Of a stretch of DNA of 64,000 bases, positions 1,400 through 20,811 are shown piece after piece; position 1 is the stretch's first letter, and the number at the start of each line of letters is the position of its first letter. The stretch is from a phage: sequence record PQ724394.1. One strand, 5' to 3'. The notes under the pieces were generated by a model. It did not search any database. It had not been told where the DNA came from and was given only the letters and a program-made list of their open reading frames with translations. The position numbers were made by a program, and so were the translations under genes.

Positions 1400-2266
1400 A
1401 TGATTACACTTAAAATAAATGGTCCTAGATATGAATTAGTTGGAAGAACTGTAACCTTTTATACCGGGTTTGTATTACCGCCCGGTTCTACTCTAGACGA
1501 TGTAGAAATTAATTGGTATAAAAACGATGTCCATATTCCACAACTTCCTACCGAGGACCCTTTTGAATTAAATTTGTGGGAAGTAGGATTCCCTGCTGCC
1601 GGAACATTTTATGCGACTATAACAAATAAGAAAAGTGGAGAAATAACTAAGAGTAATGAAATAGAACTTGAAATAGGTACCCTTCCAAGAAGGGTTATTT
1701 TAGATATAAATTCAAGACGATTAATATACGCTAATATAGGAGAAACTGTTGCACTTAGGCCATCATGTAGAGTAGAGCCTTCTTATGCGGAAAGGGTTTG
1801 TAGATGGTACAGAGACGGAGTCGAATTATCTAAAGATGAAGATATCGATATATTAATAGACAACTCTAGTAAATTCGGGGAGTATACATTAAAATCTATA
1901 GGAACTTGTGAAGGAGCATATATCCCTGCTTCTGAAGAACTTTTAGTTGAAATAAAACCTAGGGATGATGTATTGCAGTGCCCTTTCATATATGATAACG
2001 ACCTTAATGCTTATTTACCATATGGCGGTGGAAGAAATGAATCGTATATGTGGATAGGTTGGTGGGTATGGGACGAAATAAGAGAAGCCGTTAGATTGGG
2101 AGAAGATTGGACTTTGGATATAAACAACAGCCCATACAAGTATAAATGTGAGTTACAAAAAGTAGCCGACCTTTTGTCTAAGTATCCTGAAGTAGAGATA
2201 CAAGAGTCGAGAAATGGCTACATCTTAGAAAGGAAGGACTTAGTTTACGTCCCTCCTGAAAAATAA
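1400..2266 (+). CDS. Hoc-like paralogue: Ig-like N-terminal region plus Hoc-type C-terminal domain
   Basis: C-terminus SYMWIGWWVWDEI...YPEVEIQESRNGYILER aligns with the Hoc C-terminus SAYIWCGWWVMDEI...YPEVDVQESRNGRIIHR encoded at 2540-3952; RBS aggaggt before ATG; terminator follows. Confidence 0.6.
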   Translation: MITLKINGPRYELVGRTVTFYTGFVLPPGSTLDDVEINWYKNDVHIPQLPTEDPFELNLWEVGFPAAGTFYATITNKKSGEITKSNEIELEIGTLPRRVILDINSRRLIYANIGETVALRPSCRVEPSYAERVCRWYRDGVELSKDEDIDILIDNSSKFGEYTLKSIGTCEGAYIPASEELLVEIKPRDDVLQCPFIYDNDLNAYLPYGGGRNESYMWIGWWVWDEIREAVRLGEDWTLDINNSPYKYKCELQKVADLLSKYPEVEIQESRNGYILERKDLVYVPPEK

Positions 2267-2267
2267 T

Positions 2268-2289
2268 AAAGGGCCTACGGGCCCTTTTT
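2268..2289 (+). terminator. Rho-independent terminator after the collagen-like/Hoc-like gene pair
   Basis: aaa-gggcc-tacg-ggccc-ttttt hairpin followed by T-run. Confidence 0.7.
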
Positions 2290-2454
2290 GGTTTGTAAAA
2301 TTTTATCTATAGTAGCTATTATCCCGAAAAATGAACTAATGCATGAGAAAAGAGCCAATATAGAAGCAAACAACCCACTAGTTAATGAAATTAACGAAAA
2401 CAAAAACAGCACTATAAAGAAAACCAACAACCCTATATCTTTGTTAAATTTCAT
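2275..2454 (-). CDS. Small hydrophobic protein (59 aa, two predicted TM segments), hypothetical
   Basis: Own translation: MKFNKDIGLLVFFIVLFLFSLISLTSGLFASILALFSC...; below the ORF-track size cutoff; lies between two convergent terminators. Confidence 0.3.
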   Translation of the reverse strand: MKFNKDIGLLVFFIVLFLFSLISLTSGLFASILALFSCISSFFGIIATIDKILQTKKGP

Positions 2455-2517
2455 ATATCCACCTATTAAAAATTATTCGTCAATAACTTAATCTCCCGAA
2501 ACACTATCATAAACTAA

Positions 2518-2541
2518 ATAAGGGCCTTGCGGCCCTTTATT
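2518..2541 (-). terminator. Rho-independent terminator downstream of hoc (bidirectional potential)
   Basis: gggcc-ttgc-ggccc hairpin flanked by A/T runs on both sides. Confidence 0.65.
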
Positions 2542-3952
2542 AATAAACGTAATCGTAAATAATTCCAGCATCCAAAGCGGTTCTGTGAATAATTCTACCA
2601 TTACGAGATTCCTGTACATCAACCTCAGGATAATCGGCTACCATTTTTTGAAGGGTATAACGATGGAGATAATATTCACTATCAGGTTCGTCAGTTTTCC
2701 AGTCTTTGCCTTCAAGGGTCATTTTCTGAATTTCGTCCATAACCCACCAACCACACCAAATATAAGCTGAATTACGAACTGGTAGCGGATGAACGTAAGG
2801 TAGTTCGCCCTCTGGTTCAGGAGCTACTTTAGCCGTAATTGTTACATTACCTGTTTTTTTGACAGTCACAGGATTATAGTCGGTAGCCGAAACAACAGCA
2901 GAAACTTCAATAACCTGTGAACCTTCAGCGCTTGTGTCAATTACTAATGTATCCGTAGCACCCACAACAGGTGAACCATCTTTCTTCCAAGAATAAGCAA
3001 AAGTAGCACCACTAGGCGCACCGACTACCGTGGCTTTAAAAGAAGCCGGGATTCCTTCAGAGACAGTAATAGAAGCAGGCGTTAAATTAACAGAAACACC
3101 TGTCATAGTCTTTTTAGTAATTGTTACACTTCCTGTTTTGGTAACGGTTAAATCATTATAATCCGTACCTTTTAGGAGTACCGAAACTTCAATAGAGTAA
3201 GAACCTATTGTAGACGTATCAACAGCAAGAGTATTACTGCTTTCGCCCGGAATAATAGAACCATCTTTCTTCCAAGAATAAGTTGCATTTACGCCGGAAG
3301 GAGCACCAACTACATCCGCTTTAAACTGTGCAGATGAGTCTTTCTCTGTACTAATTGAGGCGGGCGTTAAAGTAACAGAAACACCTGATATAGTTTTCTT
3401 AACAAAAGTTACCGCAACACCTTTAGTAGCGGTACCCGGGTCATATTCAGGGGCGGTAACAGTAACTTCACAGTTCAACGTGTAATTTGCTTCTGCTGCT
3501 TCGGTTACAGTAATAGTTTTACCAGTTTGTCCAGAGATTACGCTGGTGTTACGTTTCCAAACATAAGCAATTGTTGCGCCTGCAGGTGCACCCGTCACGT
3601 TAGCAGTAACAACTTGAGATTGGCCAACTTCTTTAGAAACAGAAATAGGGTCTAAGGCCAAAGAAATAGACATGGTCTTATTAGCTACGGTAACTTCAAA
3701 AGTATCTTCAGCTACCTCAGGTTCGCCTTCAGCCGGAGTAGAAGTTGCTACTACTTTTAAAACTTTCTTACCTGCAGGTGAAGCACCTGTATATTTCAAA
3801 ACATTGGTTGCTTCTGGATTAGAAGCACCATCAATAGACCATACATATGTAATGGTTCCTTCTACAGCTGCACCTGTTGCGGTAGCAGTGTAGTTAGCAC
3901 TTTCGCCTATTTTAATAGACGCTGTGCCGGCTATACTTACAGTAAAAGCCAT
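2540..3952 (-). CDS. hoc: Highly immunogenic outer capsid protein Hoc (expanded, several Ig-like repeats)
   Basis: Repeated Ig-like modules (TYVWSIDG, AYVWKRN, TYSWKKDGS, AYSWKKDGS) and C-terminus matching T4 Hoc as I recall it (PEPEGELPYVHPLP...WCGWWVMDEIQKM...YPEVDVQESRNG). Confidence 0.8.
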   Translation of the reverse strand: MAFTVSIAGTASIKIGESANYTATATGAAVEGTITYVWSIDGASNPEATNVLKYTGASPAGKKVLKVVATSTPAEGEPEVAEDTFEVTVANKTMSISLALDPISVSKEVGQSQVVTANVTGAPAGATIAYVWKRNTSVISGQTGKTITVTEAAEANYTLNCEVTVTAPEYDPGTATKGVAVTFVKKTISGVSVTLTPASISTEKDSSAQFKADVVGAPSGVNATYSWKKDGSIIPGESSNTLAVDTSTIGSYSIEVSVLLKGTDYNDLTVTKTGSVTITKKTMTGVSVNLTPASITVSEGIPASFKATVVGAPSGATFAYSWKKDGSPVVGATDTLVIDTSAEGSQVIEVSAVVSATDYNPVTVKKTGNVTITAKVAPEPEGELPYVHPLPVRNSAYIWCGWWVMDEIQKMTLEGKDWKTDEPDSEYYLHRYTLQKMVADYPEVDVQESRNGRIIHRTALDAGIIYDYVY

Positions 3953-3961
3953 AGTTTACCC

Positions 3962-4633
3962 TTATTTTAAAGTTACAAAAGATGAATTACGTGTTTCACG
4001 TACTAATACTGAGCCATTACGATTGATGTAATAAATCAGACTGAATAATGTTTGGTGGGCAGAAGGGTGTTGGAAATCTTTAGGACGTTCTTTCCAATCA
4101 GGGGTTTCAGAAATCCATTGATAAATCCACCAAGGAACAGTACAGTAACCAGGGTTTTTACCAATAAGCAAAAGATTAGGACTAAAGTTTTCAGGCAAAG
4201 AGAATACAGGTTTTTCCGATTCAATAACCTTGGTTACGGCCTCTTTGAATTTCTCTTCGACAAACGGAACATCTTCTTCAATAATCTCTACCTTAGGAAG
4301 TTCGGCTACCTCAATAACTTCAACTACAGCTTCAGGGGCATCAAATAATAGGGTAGCTTCTTCTTTGGCAGGTTCCGCGCCATCAACAAATTCGTTAGCG
4401 CCTGTAAGTTCGTCGGCGGCATCAATCAAATCAGAAATAGACAAACCTTCGGTTTCTGGAAGTGGTTCATCAGCCAAGGCTTTAAGGCCTTCAGAGATAT
4501 CGATAATCAAATTATCAAACGAACGGGTTTTCTTAAGTTTTAAACCGAATTGTTCGCCGTATTCGATTAACTTAGCTTTAGCTTCTTTTTTATCTTCGAG
4601 TGCACGAAGCTCTTCAATATATTGAGTATCCAT
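3962..4633 (-). CDS. inh: Putative Inh (inhibitor of prohead protease), positional assignment
   Basis: 223 aa acidic protein located between hoc and uvsW as in T4; minus-strand late promoter upstream. Confidence 0.45.
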   Translation of the reverse strand: MDTQYIEELRALEDKKEAKAKLIEYGEQFGLKLKKTRSFDNLIIDISEGLKALADEPLPETEGLSISDLIDAADELTGANEFVDGAEPAKEEATLLFDAPEAVVEVIEVAELPKVEIIEEDVPFVEEKFKEAVTKVIESEKPVFSLPENFSPNLLLIGKNPGYCTVPWWIYQWISETPDWKERPKDFQHPSAHQTLFSLIYYINRNGSVLVRETRNSSFVTLK

Positions 4634-4652
4634 AATTAGTCTCTTGTTGGTG

Positions 4653-4660
4653 TATAAATA
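4653..4660 (+). promoter_or_regulatory. T4-type late promoter (TATAAATA) upstream of uvsW
   Basis: Exact TATAAATA about 29 nt upstream of the uvsW ATG. Confidence 0.55.
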
Positions 4661-4666
4661 TAATTA

Positions 4667-4674
4667 TATTTATA
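4667..4674 (-). promoter_or_regulatory. T4-type late promoter (TATAAATA on minus strand) upstream of inh
   Basis: Reverse complement of tatttata gives TATAAATA about 33 nt upstream of the inh start. Confidence 0.5.
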
Positions 4675-4688
4675 ACTGAGAATTAGAC

Positions 4689-6185
4689 ATGCAAATTCAA
4701 GTACATTTTGATAATTTTAGTCATGTTCGTGTTGAGTGTGATGAATCCACCTTCTACGAACTCAGAGACTATTTCAGCTTTGAAGCTGATGGATATAAAT
4801 TTAACCCTAAATACCGTTACGGGCAATGGGATGGGAGAATTCGTCTTCTAGATTATAACCGTAAACTTCCGTATGGTCTAGTCCCACAAATTAAAAAATT
4901 CGCTGACCAGTTTGAATACTCTCTTTGGATAGACCCACGTATTCTTGAACAGGAAGATATTTCACGTGAAGATTTTGACTCATGGGTAGCTTCACAGGAG
5001 ATTTATTCAGGTTCTACCAGGATTGAGCCACATTGGTATCAGAATGAAGCCGTATACAACGGTCTGACAAAACGTCGTGCAATTCTGAATTTACCTACAT
5101 CTGCAGGTAAATCATTGATTCAGGCGCTCCTGAGTCGATATTACGTTGAGAACTATGAAGGTAAAATTCTTATCTTAGTTCCTACTACTGCACTTGTCGA
5201 TCAGATGATTAATGACTTCATTGATTATCGTTTGTTCCCTAAAGCTGCTATGCTTGGTATTCGTTCAGGTACTGCTCGTGATTCCGATGCAATGATTTAT
5301 GTTTCAACTTATCAAACGGCTATTAAACAACCTAAAGAATGGTTTGCTCAGTTTGGTATGTTTATGAACGACGAATGCCATTTGGCGACAGGTAAATCAA
5401 TTTCTACCATCATCGAAGGCCTTACCAATTGTATGTTTAAATTCGGTTTGTCCGGTTCTTTAAAAGACGGTAAAGCCAATTTAATGCAATATATGGGTTT
5501 GTTTGGTGATGTGTTTAAGCCAGTATCCACTTCACAGTTAATGGAAGAAGGACAGGTTACAGACCTTAAAATCAACAGTATCTTCCTTCGTTATCCGGAT
5601 GAATTCACTGTTAAGATGAAAGGTAAAGATTACCAATCAGAAATCAAGGTCATTACTAAGGCTACTCGTCGTAATAAATGGGTTGCTAATTTAGCTGTTA
5701 AACTCGCTAAGAAAGAAGAGAACGTATTCCTGATGTTTAAAAACATCGAACACGGTAAAACTCTTTTTGAAATGGTTAAAGAGCAACATAAAGAAGTTTA
5801 TTACGTATCAGGTGAAGTTAATACCGAAACGCGTAATGCTCTGAAAGTAATGGCGGAAAATGGTAAGGGTATTATTGTTGTGGCAAGTTATGGTGTGTTC
5901 TCTACTGGTATTTCCGTTAAGAACCTTCACCATGTTGTATTTGCTCATCCAGTAAAATCCAAAATCATTGTACTCCAGACAATTGGTCGTGTACTCCGTA
6001 AACATGCTTCTAAATCAACAGCACAAGTTTGGGACATTATAGACGACATGGGCGTTAAGCCTAAATCAGCAAATGCTAAAAAGAAATATGTTCATTTGAA
6101 TTACGCATTAAAACATGCCTTAGAACGTATTCAACGTTATGCTGACGAGAAATTTAATTACGTAATGAAACAGGTGGATTTATGA
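4689..6185 (+). CDS. uvsW: UvsW RNA-DNA/DNA helicase
   Basis: Near-identical to T4 UvsW over its length (MQIQVHFDNFSHVRVECDESTFYELRDYFSFEADGYKFNP...; helicase motifs LNLPTSAGKS, DECH). Confidence 0.9.
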   Translation: MQIQVHFDNFSHVRVECDESTFYELRDYFSFEADGYKFNPKYRYGQWDGRIRLLDYNRKLPYGLVPQIKKFADQFEYSLWIDPRILEQEDISREDFDSWVASQEIYSGSTRIEPHWYQNEAVYNGLTKRRAILNLPTSAGKSLIQALLSRYYVENYEGKILILVPTTALVDQMINDFIDYRLFPKAAMLGIRSGTARDSDAMIYVSTYQTAIKQPKEWFAQFGMFMNDECHLATGKSISTIIEGLTNCMFKFGLSGSLKDGKANLMQYMGLFGDVFKPVSTSQLMEEGQVTDLKINSIFLRYPDEFTVKMKGKDYQSEIKVITKATRRNKWVANLAVKLAKKEENVFLMFKNIEHGKTLFEMVKEQHKEVYYVSGEVNTETRNALKVMAENGKGIIVVASYGVFSTGISVKNLHHVVFAHPVKSKIIVLQTIGRVLRKHASKSTAQVWDIIDDMGVKPKSANAKKKYVHLNYALKHALERIQRYADEKFNYVMKQVDL

Positions 6186-6409
6186 AGTCCTTTAAAGAAG
6201 TTATCTATGAAGCCTCTATCGAGAGCTTCATGTCTAAAATTAGTTCTTGTCAGACCATGGAAGGTCTGGAGGAATTAGAGAAGTATTACAAAACTCGTAG
6301 TAAGGAAGCCGAACTTCGTGATTCGGATGATATCAGCGTACGCGATGCATTGGCTGGTAAGAGAGCCGAATTGGAGTCGATGGACGACGAGGAAGAGGAA
6401 GATTTCTAA
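6182..6409 (+). CDS. uvsW.1: UvsW.1-like small acidic protein
   Basis: 75 aa ORF overlapping uvsW stop (ATGA), acidic C-terminus, same position and size as T4 uvsW.1. Confidence 0.6.
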   Translation: MKSFKEVIYEASIESFMSKISSCQTMEGLEELEKYYKTRSKEAELRDSDDISVRDALAGKRAELESMDDEEEEDF

Positions 6410-6411
6410 AC

Positions 6412-6440
6412 AAAAAGGGCCCAACCTTTCGGAAGGGCCA
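6412..6440. terminator. Hairpin between convergent uvsW.1 and uvsY-region transcripts (T-run on minus strand)
   Basis: gggccc...cctt-tcgg-aagg...gggcc stem-loop; T-run only on minus strand. Confidence 0.4.
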
Positions 6441-6469
6441 ATAACCATAAAATGGCTATACACACTAGA

Positions 6470-6637
6470 CTAAAGTAATAATTGTGTTTCGTTCAGCTGT
6501 TCTTCAGTGTTTTCCGTAACAGGCATGCTTTGAACGTAATTATAACATGAACCCGGATGAACCGGACCTTTTTCTGTTTCAACAACCAATGCAGCATCGA
6601 TTGGAGTTTTACAGACAACGCAAATCTTATCTGACAT
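6470..6637 (-). CDS. Small Cys-containing protein (55 aa), uvsY.-2-like position
   Basis: Own translation MSDKICVVCKTPIDAALVVETEKGPVHPGSCYNYVQSMPV...; SD ggagacaatc before ATG. Confidence 0.4.
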   Translation of the reverse strand: MSDKICVVCKTPIDAALVVETEKGPVHPGSCYNYVQSMPVTENTEEQLNETQLLL

Positions 6638-6763
6638 GATTGTCTCCTTAGTTTAACTTACATATCTATTTATTACTTGCTAAAGCGGCATTAATGAATT
6701 CTTGGAGAAGTTTCATCTTATCGGCATCTACTTTAATGGGTTTGGTATTTTTAGTACGTCTCA

Positions 6764-7198
6764 TTATTTGCCAGCCTCAAATTGTCTCATCTCATGCATG
6801 GTCTTAAGGTTAAAACCTCGCGCCTTAATAGCATCAAGTGCCGAACTACAAAAGTCCTGTAATAAAGCCCAATACTGGATTGATGTATCTATTTTAATCA
6901 CGCTAGAATCTGCGGCCATTACAGTCTTTAATTCTGACTTCTCGTATTGGTCCATACAAACCTCATCACCAGGCTCTCCACGTCCCGTGTAGAAATCTAA
7001 TCGCTTCTTAAGAGAGGTCTTTTTCTGGATTTCTAATCGCATTATCTCTTTCTTACAATTCGTATACAGCCTTAGCCATTTGCTGTGCAGCAAAACGTTG
7101 TTCTGTACTTCATACTGTAAACGAGTCCCATCAATCTTTAAATCTTCATCTAATGCATCTTGGAATGATTCCAATTTATATTCAATCTCTTTACTCAT
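6764..7198 (-). CDS. uvsY: UvsY recombination mediator
   Basis: Matches T4 UvsY (…QYEVQNNVLLHSKWL…DAIKARGFNLKTMHEMRQFEAGK); start taken at the internal Met (MSKEIEYK) with SD agga; the ORF-track start lies upstream. Confidence 0.85.
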   Translation of the reverse strand: MSKEIEYKLESFQDALDEDLKIDGTRLQYEVQNNVLLHSKWLRLYTNCKKEIMRLEIQKKTSLKKRLDFYTGRGEPGDEVCMDQYEKSELKTVMAADSSVIKIDTSIQYWALLQDFCSSALDAIKARGFNLKTMHEMRQFEAGK

Positions 7199-14490: not shown

Positions 14491-14519
14491 AAAAAAGGAG
14501 AGCTTACGCTCTCCTTTAG
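14491..14519. terminator. Bidirectional rho-independent terminator between gene 54 and the minus-strand alt block
   Basis: aaggagagc-ttac-gctctcctt hairpin with A-run upstream and T-rich downstream. Confidence 0.6.
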
Positions 14520-14523
14520 GGGT

Positions 14524-14814
14524 TTATTTACGGAACGAGATAAAACCTGCGGCGGTCATTAATGGCTGCTTTTTAACAAAGACCGTGATAGAAATAGGAG
14601 CTTCAGATTCAAGCTGGCCGGTTACTACACCATTAAAGATATTTTCAGTTTGTTCGGGTTGTGAAAAATTTTCAACCGGGCGTAAGTCAAACTGTTTGTC
14701 TTTGCCGAAAACTCGACGTAATTCATTACCGACTGCACTGTCGAACTCTTCAGAAGCAGGGATAACGTTTTCAACTACCAGCTCTTGACCATTAAAACGG
14801 AATGCAGATTTCAT
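14524..14814 (-). CDS. Hypothetical protein downstream of alt paralogue
   Basis: 96 aa ORF; no recognisable motif. Confidence 0.4.
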   Translation of the reverse strand: MKSAFRFNGQELVVENVIPASEEFDSAVGNELRRVFGKDKQFDLRPVENFSQPEQTENIFNGVVTGQLESEAPISITVFVKKQPLMTAAGFISFRK

Positions 14815-14871: not shown

Positions 14872-16995
14872 CTACATTTTGAATTTATTTGATAAAGAAG
14901 AGATGTCCAAAGATGCAGCAAGGATTTCCATAGCCTCATTACTTTCTGAAACAGATTCTGAAACTAGGAATTCTTTAAACCCATTCATCAATTTAACTTC
15001 ACCGGTTTCCATCAGATGGTCGCCATCGTAAACGGATTCGCTGAGTTCTGAAGGAGATGTCACTGTAGCTTCCATAAGGTATTTGTGAGATACTCTATCA
15101 TTCATAGCAAAAGCCGCTACTTTATCAACCTTCAACAATAACCCGCGCGGAAGGATAATTTCCGCTTCTTCGGCATATTCTGTAAGGTCGCCAGGAGCGA
15201 TAACTTTAACTGCTTCAGCACCTCGAATAACCATACCAATTTCAGCAATCCTGTCTGCAGGGCCTTCAGGTGCAATTGGATTACCAAACTCGTCTTCTTC
15301 CCATTCTACCTCTTCGTCATCGACTTCACCTACGTCAGATGAACTACCACTGGCTAATTTAAACAACTCATCAGCGGAGGATAAAGAACCTTCATCACCG
15401 ACAAAAACTGCTTGGTTGTCGAGGGCCATATAATTTTTACCAAATTCGCCAAAGATATTAGGCTTTAATGAAGCGGACACAAAGTTCTTAAAGTAAAAGG
15501 TTTTGTTATCAATATTATGGCGCAGAATTTTGTATGGTAAATCCTGACCACGATACAAAATAGTACCCTTAGGAAGTTTAATACCCTTGGTAAATGCCGA
15601 GTCTAAATCCTTAATCAATTTAATAGCTGTTGTATTGTTTTCGGATTCAGGTTTACCTAAAAGGAATAAGTTCATAGGAGCATATTCAGCCGCACAATAT
15701 TCAATAATGGCATTACTTTCGTCTTTGGTCAAGCCCTTAGGTTTAATGAGCTCGCCTGAATAAGCATATGCATCGCTAATAGAATCGTTAATCAGTTTAT
15801 AAACGGCTTCCATAGCGAAAGCAATTCGAGATGCTTTCTCTGAAGGAGACCCCTGAAAACGGGCACTCAGGTTATTAACAATTCTCTTAATAATATCCAG
15901 ACTATTGGTAGTATTGATTTGAGAAAGACCGCTTAAAAGTCTATCGACTTCCGTATTAAAAAATGCCATATTATTAGAGTAAATTTCAAACCCTTGTTTA
16001 TCTCTATTAGCATAATTTAGTTTAAATTTACTATCAGTCATTAAAGCGTGCGTGAGAGCAATGGTGTATCTAAAGTTGGCAAGGTCCTCACTCTTAGATT
16101 TAAACTGAGAGGCCTGTCGCATTTTAGTAATAGAACCTTTTTTAAAGTTCTGGCTAATCTGCTCAATACCTTCGTTCTCAGGGCCTTCGGCCGAGTGAAC
16201 AGGGACAGAAGCTTCAAACTCGTTATAAATCTGCAATTCTTTAGGTGATAAAGTTTCGGGTTCGGCAGTAGAATACTGCGCCGCTGCAGCCATACGACGG
16301 GAAATCTTAGTACGAGAAATAACAGCCTTATCGGTACGTTTCTCTTCAACCTGTGCAATAGATGCCGCTACGGCTTCTACTTTACTTACGGCCTGGCCGG
16401 TTTTCTTAGAAACATAAACTTCACCGACTTTAGACTCAACCTTGGTATAAAGGTCTGCATCAATTTCAGGCATACCCTTGATATCTTCGATATTAGAACC
16501 ACGACGTACTAAAAGAACGTAGGTATGTTTACCACTAAACTGGAACATATCATCGACAACTTTAAACTTACCACCGGTACGTGCCATCACCAAACGAGCT
16601 AATACACGCTGAACGGTAGGACCCTTACCTTTCATTTTCTTGGTAGGGAAACGGAACAAAACTGCATCCATTTTAAGTTTGTTTACTTGTTCGTATACGG
16701 TATCGAAAATAGTATTCAGTGTACCAAGTGGGTCAGAACCAAGCCCACCTTTGAGTTCAGCCGGAGCACCCTTGCTAGACAAACTCATTAAAATAATATG
16801 AACGTATTTGTCGCCAGGCTTAACCATTTTAATAGCGTCTCCTTGAGACGCATAAGATACCATACGAGCAACCAGGTTATCATTACCTGGTGCTTGGATA
16901 GAGAAAATCTGTGGGATACCTGAGCCTGGCTTAAGATTTGTTACTGGATAGTTTTTAGCTGAATCACTATCAAAAACTTCGTTTAAATTTTCCAT
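14872..16995 (-). CDS. Alt-like ADP-ribosyltransferase paralogue
   Basis: 707 aa; N-terminal half aligns with the neighbouring Alt; C-terminal ART-like R/S-x-S/E pattern (LYRGQ…FVSASL…AEEAEIILPRG). Confidence 0.7.
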   Translation of the reverse strand: MENLNEVFDSDSAKNYPVTNLKPGSGIPQIFSIQAPGNDNLVARMVSYASQGDAIKMVKPGDKYVHIILMSLSSKGAPAELKGGLGSDPLGTLNTIFDTVYEQVNKLKMDAVLFRFPTKKMKGKGPTVQRVLARLVMARTGGKFKVVDDMFQFSGKHTYVLLVRRGSNIEDIKGMPEIDADLYTKVESKVGEVYVSKKTGQAVSKVEAVAASIAQVEEKRTDKAVISRTKISRRMAAAAQYSTAEPETLSPKELQIYNEFEASVPVHSAEGPENEGIEQISQNFKKGSITKMRQASQFKSKSEDLANFRYTIALTHALMTDSKFKLNYANRDKQGFEIYSNNMAFFNTEVDRLLSGLSQINTTNSLDIIKRIVNNLSARFQGSPSEKASRIAFAMEAVYKLINDSISDAYAYSGELIKPKGLTKDESNAIIEYCAAEYAPMNLFLLGKPESENNTTAIKLIKDLDSAFTKGIKLPKGTILYRGQDLPYKILRHNIDNKTFYFKNFVSASLKPNIFGEFGKNYMALDNQAVFVGDEGSLSSADELFKLASGSSSDVGEVDDEEVEWEEDEFGNPIAPEGPADRIAEIGMVIRGAEAVKVIAPGDLTEYAEEAEIILPRGLLLKVDKVAAFAMNDRVSHKYLMEATVTSPSELSESVYDGDHLMETGEVKLMNGFKEFLVSESVSESNEAMEILAASLDISSLSNKFKM

Positions 16996-16998
16996 TAT

Positions 16999-19083
16999 TT
17001 ACCCTTGGATGAATTTTTCTGGTATGTCATAGAGGTCTATGCATGAAGCCAAAAGTGGCAGTACGTCAAACCGTGTAGATTTAACAAATGAATCAAAAGA
17101 TACAGGGCTTTCGGAAGTATCGAAGTCATCTTGGTATACAACCAATTCACCAGTTTCCATTAGTACGTCACCATCATACACCACAGATTCTTGAAGCTCA
17201 TCTGTGGTCATAACTTCGGCTTGAACGAGTTTTGTATTACTAGATGTTGTTCCGTCATTATTAGAGGCATCGGTTATTTTATTAACTTTGACCATCAATC
17301 CACGCGGTAGAATAACTTCAGCTTCTGTTGCTATTCCGAGACTTCCTGGATATACAACATTAACTTTATGGGCTCCATCAATTGCCCATCCTATTTGAAC
17401 TTTAACGTAATCAGGGTTTTCTTTATACGCTCTTATTTCATTAGGATTAATGGTTATTCCTTCTTCATTTTTATCGACTGTCAATTCATTGCGAACTTCC
17501 GGTTCTAAAAGACCGACACCCGCGTGTGTAACACCAAAACGACCAAAAATGATAGGAGTCAGTGAAGTAGATACAAAATTTCTAAAATAAAATACCTTAT
17601 TTTTAACTAGTGCTTCGTATATAGGAGCAGTCATACTTTGAGCACGATAAACTGTAATGCCTTCTGGTATACGGTCACCATTTTCAAAAGCTGAATCAAG
17701 ATTATTAACAGCAGATTCAATAGACCTTTCATTCATTACATCATAGTTCTGAGGATTATAACGTCCTAAAAGAAGATTATTGATGTCGGTATAACCTGAG
17801 CCGCAGTATTCTCTGATGCCGCGCTTTTGTGATGGGGTGTATTTAGAACCATCGCGAGCAATAGTAATATCGACCATAATACCACCGCCTACACCAGCAA
17901 AACTATATACACGTTTTTTAATGAACTTGGTCTTGGCTGCTTTCCACTTGGACTCGGTTAATTCATTCCAGACGTCGTCAGGCTGACCTTTACGAGTTTT
18001 GTTATGTATAGCCAGCCATTCGCCTTTATATTCTTCAAAAACTGTATTAATAACAGAGGCATACTTTTCTAGAGCTTTAACAGATGTCAAAGGTTCGTTT
18101 TTGATGGCTGTAAGAATTCTCTCTTTAATTTTCTCTTGGATTTCACCTATACCGTGAAGAGGAAACATTTTATATTCATAATGCAACTCTTCAGCAGTGC
18201 CTTCAGCTACTATATTAGCAACTTTATTTTTAGCCGCAGGAGAATTGTTATTGGTGACCATTTCCTGTGCCTCAGGGATTAATGGAGCTGTTGCAGGTTT
18301 ATTAAAATCTGCTGCAGTAGCTTCATATTTCTTAAACAGTTCACTTTCATTACGATAAGATTCTAAAGACTGACTTGCTGCAATAGCGCGACGAGAAATC
18401 TTAGTCTTGGTTATAACCATTTTATCAGTGCGACGTTCTTCAACTTTAGCAATACTGCCGGCAATAGCAGTTTCTTTAGTAACCTGCACACCTTCTTTTT
18501 TAGAAATATAAACTTCACCAACATCAGAATCTACCTTAGTATATAATTCGGCATTAATTCCTGGCATACCTTTGATATCTTCAATATCAGCTTGTTTACG
18601 AACTACTAGGATATAAGTATGTTTACCGGTAAATTGGTACATGGCTGGAACTACTTTAAAACGTCCACCGGTTTTCTGTGCTACCAAACGTTGGATAATC
18701 CGTTGGACGATAGGTCCTTGTCCTTTCATTTTCTTGGTTGGAAAACGGAACATCACAGCATCCATACGAAGCTTTTTAACTTGTTCGAATACTACGTCGA
18801 AAATGGTATTAATAGCATCAATAGGAGTAGGGCCTAAGCCGCCTTTAAGTTCGGCTGGAGAACCTTTAGCTGAAAGGCTCATAAGGATGACGTGGGCGTA
18901 TTTATCACCTAATTTAACCTGTTTAATAGCATCGCCTTCAGAGGCATAAGATACCATACGGGCCACTAATTGGGATTCGGCGTCGCCAATCTTCCAAATC
19001 TGCGGTACTTTAAGTTTTGGGTTTAAGTTTACAGTAGGCAGGGTGCCTTCAGACTCAAACACTTCATTTAATTGTTCGGTCAT
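16999..19083 (-). CDS. alt: Alt ADP-ribosyltransferase (packaged internal head protein in T4)
   Basis: 694 aa; ART-like signature VYRAQ…FVSTSL…ATEAEVILPRG; position immediately upstream of gene 30 region as in T4. Confidence 0.8.
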   Translation of the reverse strand: MTEQLNEVFESEGTLPTVNLNPKLKVPQIWKIGDAESQLVARMVSYASEGDAIKQVKLGDKYAHVILMSLSAKGSPAELKGGLGPTPIDAINTIFDVVFEQVKKLRMDAVMFRFPTKKMKGQGPIVQRIIQRLVAQKTGGRFKVVPAMYQFTGKHTYILVVRKQADIEDIKGMPGINAELYTKVDSDVGEVYISKKEGVQVTKETAIAGSIAKVEERRTDKMVITKTKISRRAIAASQSLESYRNESELFKKYEATAADFNKPATAPLIPEAQEMVTNNNSPAAKNKVANIVAEGTAEELHYEYKMFPLHGIGEIQEKIKERILTAIKNEPLTSVKALEKYASVINTVFEEYKGEWLAIHNKTRKGQPDDVWNELTESKWKAAKTKFIKKRVYSFAGVGGGIMVDITIARDGSKYTPSQKRGIREYCGSGYTDINNLLLGRYNPQNYDVMNERSIESAVNNLDSAFENGDRIPEGITVYRAQSMTAPIYEALVKNKVFYFRNFVSTSLTPIIFGRFGVTHAGVGLLEPEVRNELTVDKNEEGITINPNEIRAYKENPDYVKVQIGWAIDGAHKVNVVYPGSLGIATEAEVILPRGLMVKVNKITDASNNDGTTSSNTKLVQAEVMTTDELQESVVYDGDVLMETGELVVYQDDFDTSESPVSFDSFVKSTRFDVLPLLASCIDLYDIPEKFIQG

Positions 19084-19119
19084 AATAATTCCTCTTTAAT
19101 AACCGTATTTATGCCATAA

Positions 19120-19135
19120 AAGGCCCGAAGGCCTT
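19120..19135 (-). promoter_or_regulatory. Intercistronic cUUCGg-type RNA hairpin
   Basis: aaggcc-cgaa-ggcctt (UUCG loop on the minus strand). Confidence 0.45.
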
Positions 19136-19304
19136 AAAGTGGTAGCAACGTACGATATACTTCGAATGTCGGGCCTTTTTCATAGCCATCAAACATGTCT
19201 TTAAAATCGGCAAAAGCTATTTCATCCTCAAACTCTAGGATGATTTGAGAGGCCGCGGTGGTATTTGTATTTGTTACAACAATTGTTTCTAAATAAGCTT
19301 TCAT
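19134..19304 (-). CDS. Hypothetical small protein (56 aa)
   Basis: ATG at 19304 abuts ligase stop; the ORF-track start is a TTG further upstream. Confidence 0.35.
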   Translation of the reverse strand: MKAYLETIVVTNTNTTAASQIILEFEDEIAFADFKDMFDGYEKGPTFEVYRTLLPL

Positions 19305-19305
19305 A

Positions 19306-20811
19306 TTATAGTCCAGTTTGAGACCAATCACCAAATACATCTTCAAATGTATCAGCTTCTGTTTTATCGAAACGCCAACCTTTAATAGTTGGAAGGAAAA
19401 TACCTACAGTATCAGTACGTCCTTTAGAATGAACCCAACCATTACATTCACAGTCAGCAATACGTCCAATCAACTTACCTTCACGGGCTTGTTTCATAAG
19501 AAGTTCACGGTCTAAATCAGGACGGTTTTCTAATGGGATTAATACCTTTTTACCGGATTTATCTTTCTTATGGGTGGTATCTTTAAAACCGGAACCACAG
19601 TCAGTTGTAATACGACGGCACCGTGATACTAACTCAATACCACCAATCTTGTTAGGGTCTTTAGAGTGTTCATAATAACCTACTACTTCTAAAGCAATAT
19701 CGATTACTTCTTTGAACTTTATAAGATTCTTAGAACGGCGGTTCTCCCAGTAGGAGTCCATGTTCTTAAGGATAATACCTTCCAAGCGTTTGCCGATATA
19801 TTTCTTATAAACTGCTTTAGCTTCGTCCAGGTTATTAACCCACTGCGTTTCGATAGGCTCGACACGTGTAAAACCTTCAGCCATTTGTACTAATGCCGCT
19901 AAACGAACATCGTATTTTTGACCTTTAATTTTGCCTTCAGAATAAACTTCATCCAATGGAACATAGTCCCACGCCTGTAATACCATGCCATCAGCTTCAG
20001 CTGGAGTAATAGTTCCTTGAAGAGCCTTGTTAGCCAAGCCATTTGACGTAGAACGATCGGCTACGGTTTGGAACTCCTTAGCCTTACTTAATTCAGGAAG
20101 TTCTTCATCAAACATACTAAACAAATCATTAGATGCTTTAGGTTCTACTTTAGGTGTATGGTAAACTAATTCACCATCAATCATAACACCATTAGGATGA
20201 CGCTGACGAGCTTCTTCGGTCATTTTAATAAGTTCGGCCGCAAGCTTAGTAAGCCCTTGATATTCGTTCCCACCACGAGTAAGGAATGTTACCCCATCGT
20301 TACGAACTTCAGCAAAACAACGGGCACCGTCAGCTTTTAATTGGGCGAACGCTGGCCATTTAATATTTTTCTTAATCAGGGCTTCGTCATAAGAACTAGC
20401 CAACATTTGAGGTTGTTCAGGGATTAAACCTTTCCAAACCTTGTTAGCAATAGAAATCGATGCACCACATTCAAGGTCACGCATCATTACTCGACGTAAT
20501 ACCTCAGCGTCAGGACCCTTAGCATCGGCAATAATTTGGGCAAGCTCTTCAATAGCCGCATTACCTGTAATCTTACGGGTGGCTAATGTGAACTCAGCGA
20601 AATCAAGAAGGTCTTCAAGTGTAATCATACCAAAGGATTGAGACGTAAATCCAGGTTCAGGCCACTTTTTAATACCGTAGTTTAAACGACGGGTATAAGC
20701 CATACGATATACACGTTTCAGAAGCTCGTTATCCTTTTCACGAGCAATAATAGCTTCTTTAGCTTTAGTAGAATCAATAGAAGCAATTTCGTTTAAAATA
20801 TCTAAAATCAT
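19306..20811 (-). CDS. 30: ATP-dependent DNA ligase gp30
   Basis: 501 aa; adenylation motif KADGAR (KxDGxR) with the catalytic lysine; T4 gp30 is 487 aa. Confidence 0.9.
   Translation of the reverse strand: MILDILNEIASIDSTKAKEAIIAREKDNELLKRVYRMAYTRRLNYGIKKWPEPGFTSQSFGMITLEDLLDFAEFTLATRKITGNAAIEELAQIIADAKGPDAEVLRRVMMRDLECGASISIANKVWKGLIPEQPQMLASSYDEALIKKNIKWPAFAQLKADGARCFAEVRNDGVTFLTRGGNEYQGLTKLAAELIKMTEEARQRHPNGVMIDGELVYHTPKVEPKASNDLFSMFDEELPELSKAKEFQTVADRSTSNGLANKALQGTITPAEADGMVLQAWDYVPLDEVYSEGKIKGQKYDVRLAALVQMAEGFTRVEPIETQWVNNLDEAKAVYKKYIGKRLEGIILKNMDSYWENRRSKNLIKFKEVIDIALEVVGYYEHSKDPNKIGGIELVSRCRRITTDCGSGFKDTTHKKDKSGKKVLIPLENRPDLDRELLMKQAREGKLIGRIADCECNGWVHSKGRTDTVGIFLPTIKGWRFDKTEADTFEDVFGDWSQTGL

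Follow-up and report, generated by a model that had tools for sequence, protein, structure and literature searches.

In this work we have examined two adjacent genes, altA and altB, which lie on the minus strand of a stretch of phage DNA 64,000 nucleotides long (sequence record PQ724394.1; this whole stretch is called the window). In all probability the source phage is a JS10-like Dhakavirus, the region its alt locus, and the two genes code for functional paralogues of Alt, both of which would be expressed late, packaged and injected, and would ADP-ribosylate arginines of different host targets. Judging from the identities described below, altA is the orthologue of T4 Alt, and altB is a distinct and older type, the B type, which is also found beside alt in about 470 phage genomes, many of Tequatrovirus among them, as well as in Moonvirus. 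As the same comparisons indicate, the altA/altB pair is already known and annotated and is common among T4 relatives, with no lineage-specific novelty. What appears to be of residual interest is the modular, recombining nature of the locus and its seemingly uncharacterised B, C and D types.

The listing of open reading frames (ORFs) contains exactly two long minus-strand ORFs in this part of the window, altA at 16999..19083 (694 aa) and altB at 14872..16995 (707 aa), and the stop codon of altA is separated from the altB ATG by 3 nt (GGGTAAATAATG). The original prediction, made from the sequence alone, had described them as two adjacent genes for Alt-type ADP-ribosyltransferases of ~700 aa, and both the ORFs and the profile matches bear this out. 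PHROG 802, 'Alt-like RNA polymerase ADP-ribosyltransferase', was matched by residues 1-693 of AltA (E 1e-263) and residues 1-707 of AltB (E 9e-251). Pfam PF03496 (ADPrib_exo_Tox) scored 122.8 bits with AltA and 64.6 bits with AltB against a gathering cut-off of 23.4, so that the C-terminus resembling an ADP-ribosyltransferase (ART), which had been proposed for both proteins, is present in each. These matches far exceed chance. The shared N-terminal motifs that had been pointed out (ARMVSYAS.GDAIK, MSLS.KG.PAELKGGLG and FRFPTKKMKG.GP.VQR) were found in both translations, and BLASTP aligned residues 1-240 of the two proteins at 65% identity (E 4e-104) and their C-terminal ~280 residues at 34% identity (E 3e-38). 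Similarity was not detectable by BLASTP over residues ~240-420. The middle segments and tails differ between the copies, as the original prediction had stated.

Each protein consists of four parts: an Alt-specific N-terminal domain of ~240 aa, a helical middle, a C3/VIP2-like ART domain and a short tail. On the minus strand, the N-terminal module of altA (aa 1-240) occupies 18364..19083 and its ART domain, which carries the catalytic R-S-ExE residues, 17134..17853. In altB the N-terminal module (aa 1-240) lies at 16276..16995, the altB-specific middle (aa 241-420) at 15736..16275 and the ART domain with its R-S-ExE residues at 14986..15738. Searches of PDB sequences with phmmer gave no match for AltB and only weak matches to iota and CDTa for AltA; with no close solved relative the structure had to be predicted. 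In the AlphaFold2 (AF2) model of AltB the N-terminal module has a pLDDT (predicted local distance difference test) of 88.6, the middle is all-helical (helices H251-H417) and a canonical C3-like fold is assigned to the ART domain with confidence. The ART domain of AltB also contains an acidic insertion of 48 residues (aa 535-582; 15250..15393, minus strand) between the STS and ExE motifs, with 16 D/E and 2 K/R, which has low confidence in the model (pLDDT <50 at residues 552-563 and 573-578). This insertion is absent from AltA and T4 Alt and has a shorter form in the B-type copy of phage wV7.

Are both copies likely to be active enzymes? In AltA the catalytic residues are R480 (codon 17644-17646), S505 in the motif S-T-S (17563-17571), E587 (17323-17325) and E589 (17317-17319), and in AltB they are R482 (15550-15552), S507 in S-A-S (15469-15477), E610 (15166-15168) and E612 (15160-15162), all on the minus strand. 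The arginine stands in the context VYRAQ in AltA and LYRGQ in AltB, and the glutamates form E587-A-E589 and E610-A-E612. A copy without catalytic residues, which the original prediction had suggested looking for, was not found: when the ART domains were aligned with those of T4 Alt, ModA and ModB (six sequences), both copies kept R, S and ExE, the invariant columns included the catalytic R, S, E and E, and ModA R72, S96, E163 and E165 fell into the same columns. An alignment of 69 homologues from a large protein database shows no variation at the catalytic S or at either E, with R conserved to at least 90%, and a phmmer alignment matched the YR and ExE of AltA with VYR and EYE of iota toxin Ia. 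The ExE form of the motif goes with arginine specificity in this ART clade, and some database records call Alt-family proteins NAD(+)--arginine ADP-ribosyltransferase. We therefore predict from the conserved residues that both genes encode functional paralogues of T4 Alt, a head-internal mono-ADP-ribosyltransferase. The importance of the glutamates is known from T4, where in vivo ADP-ribosylation was abolished by ModA E165A and by the Alt mutant 'E577A' (PMC11404850). By direct count in NP_049811 (5455-7503 of the T4 comparison locus) the ExE of T4 Alt is E574/E576, and the published number E577A (PMC11404850) seems to be offset by one residue.

The whole 4.9-kb locus is 97.7% identical to that of phage NC-G and 96.7% identical to that of Escherichia phage JS10, and by this measure the source phage is a JS10-like Dhakavirus (Straboviridae), that is, a T4-related coliphage. 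The JS10 record (EU863409) names the pair alta and altb (ACL78420 and ACL78419), flanked by alt.1/gene 30 (DNA ligase) and alt.-3/gene 54, and altA/altB are likewise annotated in IME08. Across JS10, NC-G, Esco_phi_B-01 and IME08 the same genes stand in the same order, the locus has 92-98% nucleotide identity, and the alt genes differ from those of the window by point differences only. Both members of the JS10 pair are labelled 'Alt RNA polymerase ADP-ribosylase', and JS10 AltB is 98% identical to AltB of the window. The gene order 29-48-54 / alt.-3-alt-alt.1-30 is common to the window and T4, and the alt genes are situated as in the T4 Alt family, between gene 30/alt.1 and alt.-3/gene 54, with the baseplate genes on the other strand.

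How widely does the B type occur? With AltB residues 241-707 as the query, tblastn matched 1222 phage records, in 471 of which a single match covered at least 80% of the query; these 471 are mostly Tequatrovirus at ~50% identity, together with Moonvirus at 35%. For altA, tblastn gave matches of ~66% identity in genomes of Tequatrovirus. In Tequatrovirus wV7 a pair of Alt genes, coding for 697 and 685 aa, lies side by side in this same context, the second of them being recorded as similar to RB32ORF194c, and Moonvirus KM16 has two adjacent ORFs of ~700 aa. The second wV7 gene (copy 2, YP_007004936) is the B-type orthologue of AltB: like altB it is the last alt copy, just upstream of alt.-3, it shares the ...KFKM C-terminus, and its identity to AltB is 44% in the middle, 59% in the ART domain and 62% in the tail. 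It differs from AltB in its N-terminal module, which is of the Tequatrovirus kind (45-54% identity), in having S-T-S, and in the shorter acidic insertion.

The original prediction had set a single alt gene in T4 against a duplicated pair in the window, a contrast which does not hold. Beside one intact alt, T4 has the remnant alt.-1/alt.-2 (positions 5066-5451 of the T4 comparison locus), which the annotation gives as an old duplication of the beginning of alt, and full-length B orthologues are present in wV7 and Moonvirus. Since alt.-1 is 95% and alt.-2 98% identical to residues 1-56 and 62-116, respectively, of wV7 copy 2, T4 keeps a truncated B copy and does not represent a primitive single-copy state. 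Its remnant is no ancient relic but arose fairly recently, when a B-type gene was truncated. Duplications at this locus were described by Nolan et al. in 2006 (PMC1524935), who listed RB49ORF183c, 44RRORF188c and T4 alt.-1/alt.-2 as paralogous alt duplications and 44RRORF187c as a full-length one. The prediction had also named, as an outcome that would speak against it, that both genes are routine orthologues of known alt and alt-paralogue genes. In view of the annotation in JS10 and IME08, the B-type orthologues elsewhere and the duplications described in 2006 (PMC1524935), this is what they are.

Region-wise identity matrices of 20 Alt copies from 9 phages revealed that the modules of these proteins are related in different ways. 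Over the N-terminal ~240 aa, copies of different types from the same genus are 58-69% identical (A and B of the window) or 63-69% identical (T4 Alt and wV7 copy 2), whereas copies of the same type from different genera reach 40-54%. In the middle region, AltA is 67% identical to wV7 copy 1 and AltB 44% identical to wV7 copy 2, against 8-10% between the A and B types; in the ART domain the corresponding values are 93%, 59% and 36-38%. On these figures the N-terminal module groups by phage genus, whereas relationships in the middle and ART modules follow the type, whatever the genus. The first wV7 gene (copy 1, 1642-3735 of the wV7 comparison locus) is itself a mosaic: its N-terminus is 98-100% and its tail 97% identical to T4 Alt, whereas its ART domain is 93% identical to that of Dhakavirus AltA and just 66% identical to that of T4 Alt. 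This indicates that the middle and ART module has recently been exchanged across genera.

Further variation is seen within Dhakavirus, where we found three arrangements of the copies: A-B in the window, JS10, IME08 and dhaeg, A-C-B in MX01 and AnYang, and D-A-B in Salmonella phage vB_SalD_ABTNLS3. The C type, of 681 aa, lies between A and B (4501-6546 of the MX01 comparison locus), and the D type, of 631 aa, whose C-terminal tail is unrelated, is found upstream of A (4890-6785 of the ABTNLS3 comparison locus). Their ART domains have 33-41% identity to those of A and B and are thus as distant from them as A is from B. The altB gene appears to bear a trace of such rearrangements. When its 5' part (16516-16995) was compared with 2374-6546 of the MX01 comparison locus, the first ~190 nt proved to have 93-98% identity to the middle (C) copy and just 75-82% to the B copy, whereas from ~nt 480 on altB is 90-95% identical to the last (B) copy and 43-73% identical to the C copy. 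The closest relative therefore switches from C type to B type within the first 480 nt, in a crossover zone at 16516-16806 (minus strand), and the chimeric 5' end is also seen at the protein level in JS10, IME08 and dhaeg. Such a pattern would be expected if neighbouring copies had undergone homologous recombination in their N-terminal coding regions. The direction could be either, the chimera being left by deletion of C from an A-C-B array or reflecting an insertion which gave A-C-B. A recent gene conversion between altA and altB in the window was also considered and is rejected in view of their 70% nucleotide identity, with a longest exact run of 17 nt.

Taken together, the grouping of the modules by genus and by type and the chimeric 5' end of altB indicate that the locus is in effect a series of interchangeable ART cassettes, all set on one type of N-terminal module. 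In our reading of these patterns, recombination within the N-terminal coding region common to the copies has led to their exchange, gain or loss. It speaks against this reading that the genus-wise clustering of the N-terminal module could reflect co-evolution with head-core partners and not recombination.

Putative expression signals of the locus resemble those of T4. Directly 3' of the alt.1 stop codon there is a hairpin, AAGGCCTTCGGGCCTTTT (19118..19135, minus strand), which is a probable terminator between the upstream genes and the alt operon. T4 has an identical hairpin, AAGGCCTTCGGGCCTT, at the same place, and a conserved terminator upstream of alt was listed by Nolan et al. (PMC1524935); a simple terminator scan did not flag the hairpin at 19118..19135. 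It is followed by a late-promoter-like box, CATAAATA (19106..19113, minus strand), a putative promoter which ends 22 nt 5' of the altA ATG, and in T4 the corresponding place, likewise behind this hairpin, is taken by the canonical late promoter TATAAATA. The heptamer ATAAATA, the core of the T4 late promoter, occurs 15 times in the window against 26.5 +/- 5.2 expected from shuffled sequence, and in view of this scarcity the copy before altA is unlikely to be incidental. The under-representation itself is consistent with selection against spurious late promoters. A scan for sigma-70 promoters gave fewer matches than shuffled sequence and was uninformative. Because its ATG lies 3 nt past the altA stop codon, altB is probably co-transcribed with altA. 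After altB there are 57 nt to alt.-3 (14524..14814, minus strand; 96 aa), and between alt.-3 and the convergent gene 54 there is a hairpin resembling an intrinsic terminator, with a 10-bp stem followed by a run of T (14494..14517, minus strand). From this layout we infer that altA-altB-alt.-3 would form one late transcription unit with alt.-3 as its last gene.

Several features of the N-terminal module are relevant to packaging. The N-terminal domain of T4 Alt can be aligned with both copies over residues 1-240 at 42-48% identity, with many invariant columns. All 120 of 120 homologues among the matches listed carry a precomputed match to Pfam PF26846 besides PF03496, and PF26846 is probably the curated model of the Alt N-terminal module. 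The module has two glycine-rich loops before helices, at residues 81-86 and 120-125, which are invariant across the family; their patterns, (L/K)xxGxG and KxxGxG respectively, were recognized by eye only. A GNAT-like or pseudo-GNAT fold of the module is a lead and not a result. In sequence-profile searches, GNAT was not among the Pfam matches of 29 Alt N-terminal domains with E up to 10, nor did a profile search of PDB sequences with this domain return it. A ubiquitin-like stretch at residues 192-224, which came up in a PDB profile search, was not significant (E >=0.5).

At the very start of the module both copies have the tripeptide L-N-E, at aa 5-7 of AltA (19063-19071) and aa 4-6 of AltB (16978-16986), aligned with I-T-E at residues 4-6 of T4 Alt (MELITE). 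The pattern L/I-x-E is that recognized by gp21, and both copies thus share this motif, taken as a motif only, with the T4 Alt family. The shared N-terminal module with its L-x-E is the best candidate for the determinant of head incorporation, a role which would also explain why it tracks the genus. The prohead core of T4 contains ~40 copies of gpAlt, a protein which is dispensable for assembly and from which the gp21 protease removes a small N-terminal peptide (PMC9958956). The virion proteomics literature yielded only a single-copy Alt homologue, found by mass spectrometry in virions of Morganella phage MP1 (PMC5384007), and nothing for a Dhakavirus or for any B-type copy. By analogy with T4, we suppose that altA-altB-alt.-3 would be transcribed late as one unit from the late-promoter-like box and that both proteins would be incorporated into the prohead core by way of the N-terminal module that they share, where the gp21 protease would cut off a short peptide after the conserved L-N-E. 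In the next infection both would be injected with the DNA and would use NAD+ to ADP-ribosylate arginines of host proteins. Just past the ART domain, every Alt copy compared has the invariant sequence YDGDxLMETGE. The L-M-E within it (641-643 in AltA, 17155-17163; 661-663 in AltB, 15007-15015) also fits L/I-x-E, and C-terminal processing is conceivable.

Could the pair have arisen differently, by a recent, lineage-specific duplication of alt and its subsequent diversification, as the original prediction implied? We find this extremely unlikely. Such an origin would agree with the N-terminal 240 aa, which are 65-69% identical between the copies and 42-48% identical to T4 Alt, but the rest of AltB tells otherwise, since its middle and ART domain are closer to wV7 copy 2 (44% and 59%) than to AltA (9% and 37%). 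Even the N-terminal regions have just 70% nucleotide identity and contain no long identical tracts. B-type genes adjoin alt in Tequatrovirus and Moonvirus, a remnant of the B copy is kept in T4, and the identity matrices contradict the view of the ART domains of AltA and AltB as sisters to the exclusion of the Tequatrovirus copies.

The remaining alternatives concern AltB. It might be a catalytically dead paralogue kept as a structural, space-filling protein of the head core or as a decoy, and it has to be admitted that several observations weigh against two functional, late-expressed copies: the Pfam ART score of AltB is well below that of AltA, AltB has S-A-S in place of the usual S-T-S of the family, a disordered acidic insertion interrupts its ART domain, and there is no exact canonical TATAAATA near the locus, only CATAAATA. 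A structural role would also suit the citation of Alt as also an important phage core protein in a paper on T4 engineering (PMC11404850). However, active ModA has the same S-A-S, R482, S507, E610 and E612 are kept at positions which are invariant or nearly so across the family, and the AF2 model gives the ART domain a canonical C3-like fold with confidence. Moreover, the B-type ART domain is 59% identical between genera, with full-length ORFs in ~470 genomes, and a dead AltB seems to us very unlikely. It is also unlikely that AltB is an active ART which is not packaged and acts in the producing cell like ModA and ModB. We found no packaging data for any B-type Alt, and T4 is viable after the loss of most of its B copy, so that the B-type protein is dispensable for head assembly; yet T4 Alt is itself dispensable for assembly (PMC9958956). 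In AltB the Alt N-terminal module is complete and its L-x-E site is preserved, whereas ModA and ModB have neither, and the altB gene stands 3 nt downstream of altA, behind the late-promoter-like box and next to baseplate genes. We thus favour the explanation that AltB, like AltA, is a packaged and functional enzyme.

Which proteins would the two enzymes modify? By analogy with T4 Alt, AltA probably modifies the alpha subunit of RNA polymerase and other targets. The target set of AltB is probably a different one, as its middle is unrelated to that of AltA (9% identity, as compared with 44% to wV7 copy 2), the loop before ExE is different and the acidic insertion is present. The segment just before ExE reads PGSL-GIATEAE in AltA and PGDLTEYAEEAE in AltB, and we take this segment to be the equivalent of the substrate-recognition ARTT loop of C3-like ARTs. 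The suggestion made in the original prediction, that the two copies may have different host targets, remains a reasonable one. In the literature we found no functional study of altA/altB, of Dhakavirus Alt activity, or of B-, C- or D-type Alt.

Among known systems, both proteins can be compared with T4 Alt (NP_049811), a head-packaged and injected arginine mono-ADP-ribosyltransferase. They share with it the architecture, the synteny, the hairpin with the late-promoter box, L/I-x-E, R-S-ExE and YDGDxLMETGE. The identity of the ART domain to T4 Alt is 62% for AltA and 38% for AltB, the N-terminal modules are just 42-48% identical to that of T4 Alt, and AltB differs further in its unrelated middle (12-13%) and its acidic insertion. 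T4 itself has one intact copy and the remnant alt.-1/alt.-2. ModA and ModB of T4 belong to the same R-S-ExE clade, with aligned catalytic residues and with S-A-S common to ModA and AltB, but are proteins of ~200 aa without the N-terminal Alt module, the middle region and the C-terminal tail, and have 14-17% identity to the window proteins. With 694 and 707 aa, a 240-aa N-terminal module and a middle region, AltA and AltB are not small stand-alone ARTs of the ModA/ModB type. The literature describes ModA and ModB as early proteins which do not enter the virion (PMC5512222). Vis, C3bot, Certhrax, VIP2, iota Ia and CDTa are secreted bacterial toxins with eukaryotic targets which lack the Alt N-terminal module, and the Alt ART domain has a long insertion between STS and ExE, unlike C3-like exoenzymes and binary-toxin components. 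Nor do the window proteins have the binary-toxin layout of VIP2, iota Ia and CDTa, in which an N-terminal adaptor pseudo-ART is followed by a C-terminal catalytic ART.

A broader proposal, which we put forward tentatively and with more doubt than conviction, is that T-even phages have, in their alt locus, a polymorphic array of effectors. In such an array a genus-specific, possibly GNAT-like or pseudo-GNAT, head-incorporation module might double as a recombination handle, on which unrelated middle/ART 'warheads' (types A-D in Dhakavirus) would be replaced, gained and deleted, both inside a genus and from one genus to another. Each of these warheads might have a different host target, possibly a defence protein, and the B type would be an injected effector. 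If this were true, the B type, which is present in ~470 sequenced phages and was lost from laboratory T4, would be an unstudied injected effector. In its modular, recombining structure the locus is reminiscent of polymorphic toxin systems, and it could be of importance in host takeover or counter-defence. There is a possible relevance to therapeutic coliphages, as relatives of this phage have been examined as candidates for therapy.

For the most part our analysis confirms existing annotation, that is, a JS10-like altA/altB pair, and alt paralogues have been noted since 2006. The gap that we see is that nearly all work on injected phage ADP-ribosyltransferases uses T4, which lost the B copy kept intact by hundreds of its relatives. 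We found no paper on the targets of B-, C- or D-type Alt or on whether several paralogues share the ~40 Alt positions in the head.

The two small genes beside the pair were also compared. No NCBIfam model matched alt.-3, alt.1, AltA or AltB. The product of alt.-3 is conserved and belongs to PHROG 1739 (function unknown), with the gene at the same place in T4, JS10 and wV7. On the other side, alt.1 (19134-19346) falls into PHROG 1976, also of unknown function, and is conserved in T4, JS10 and wV7.

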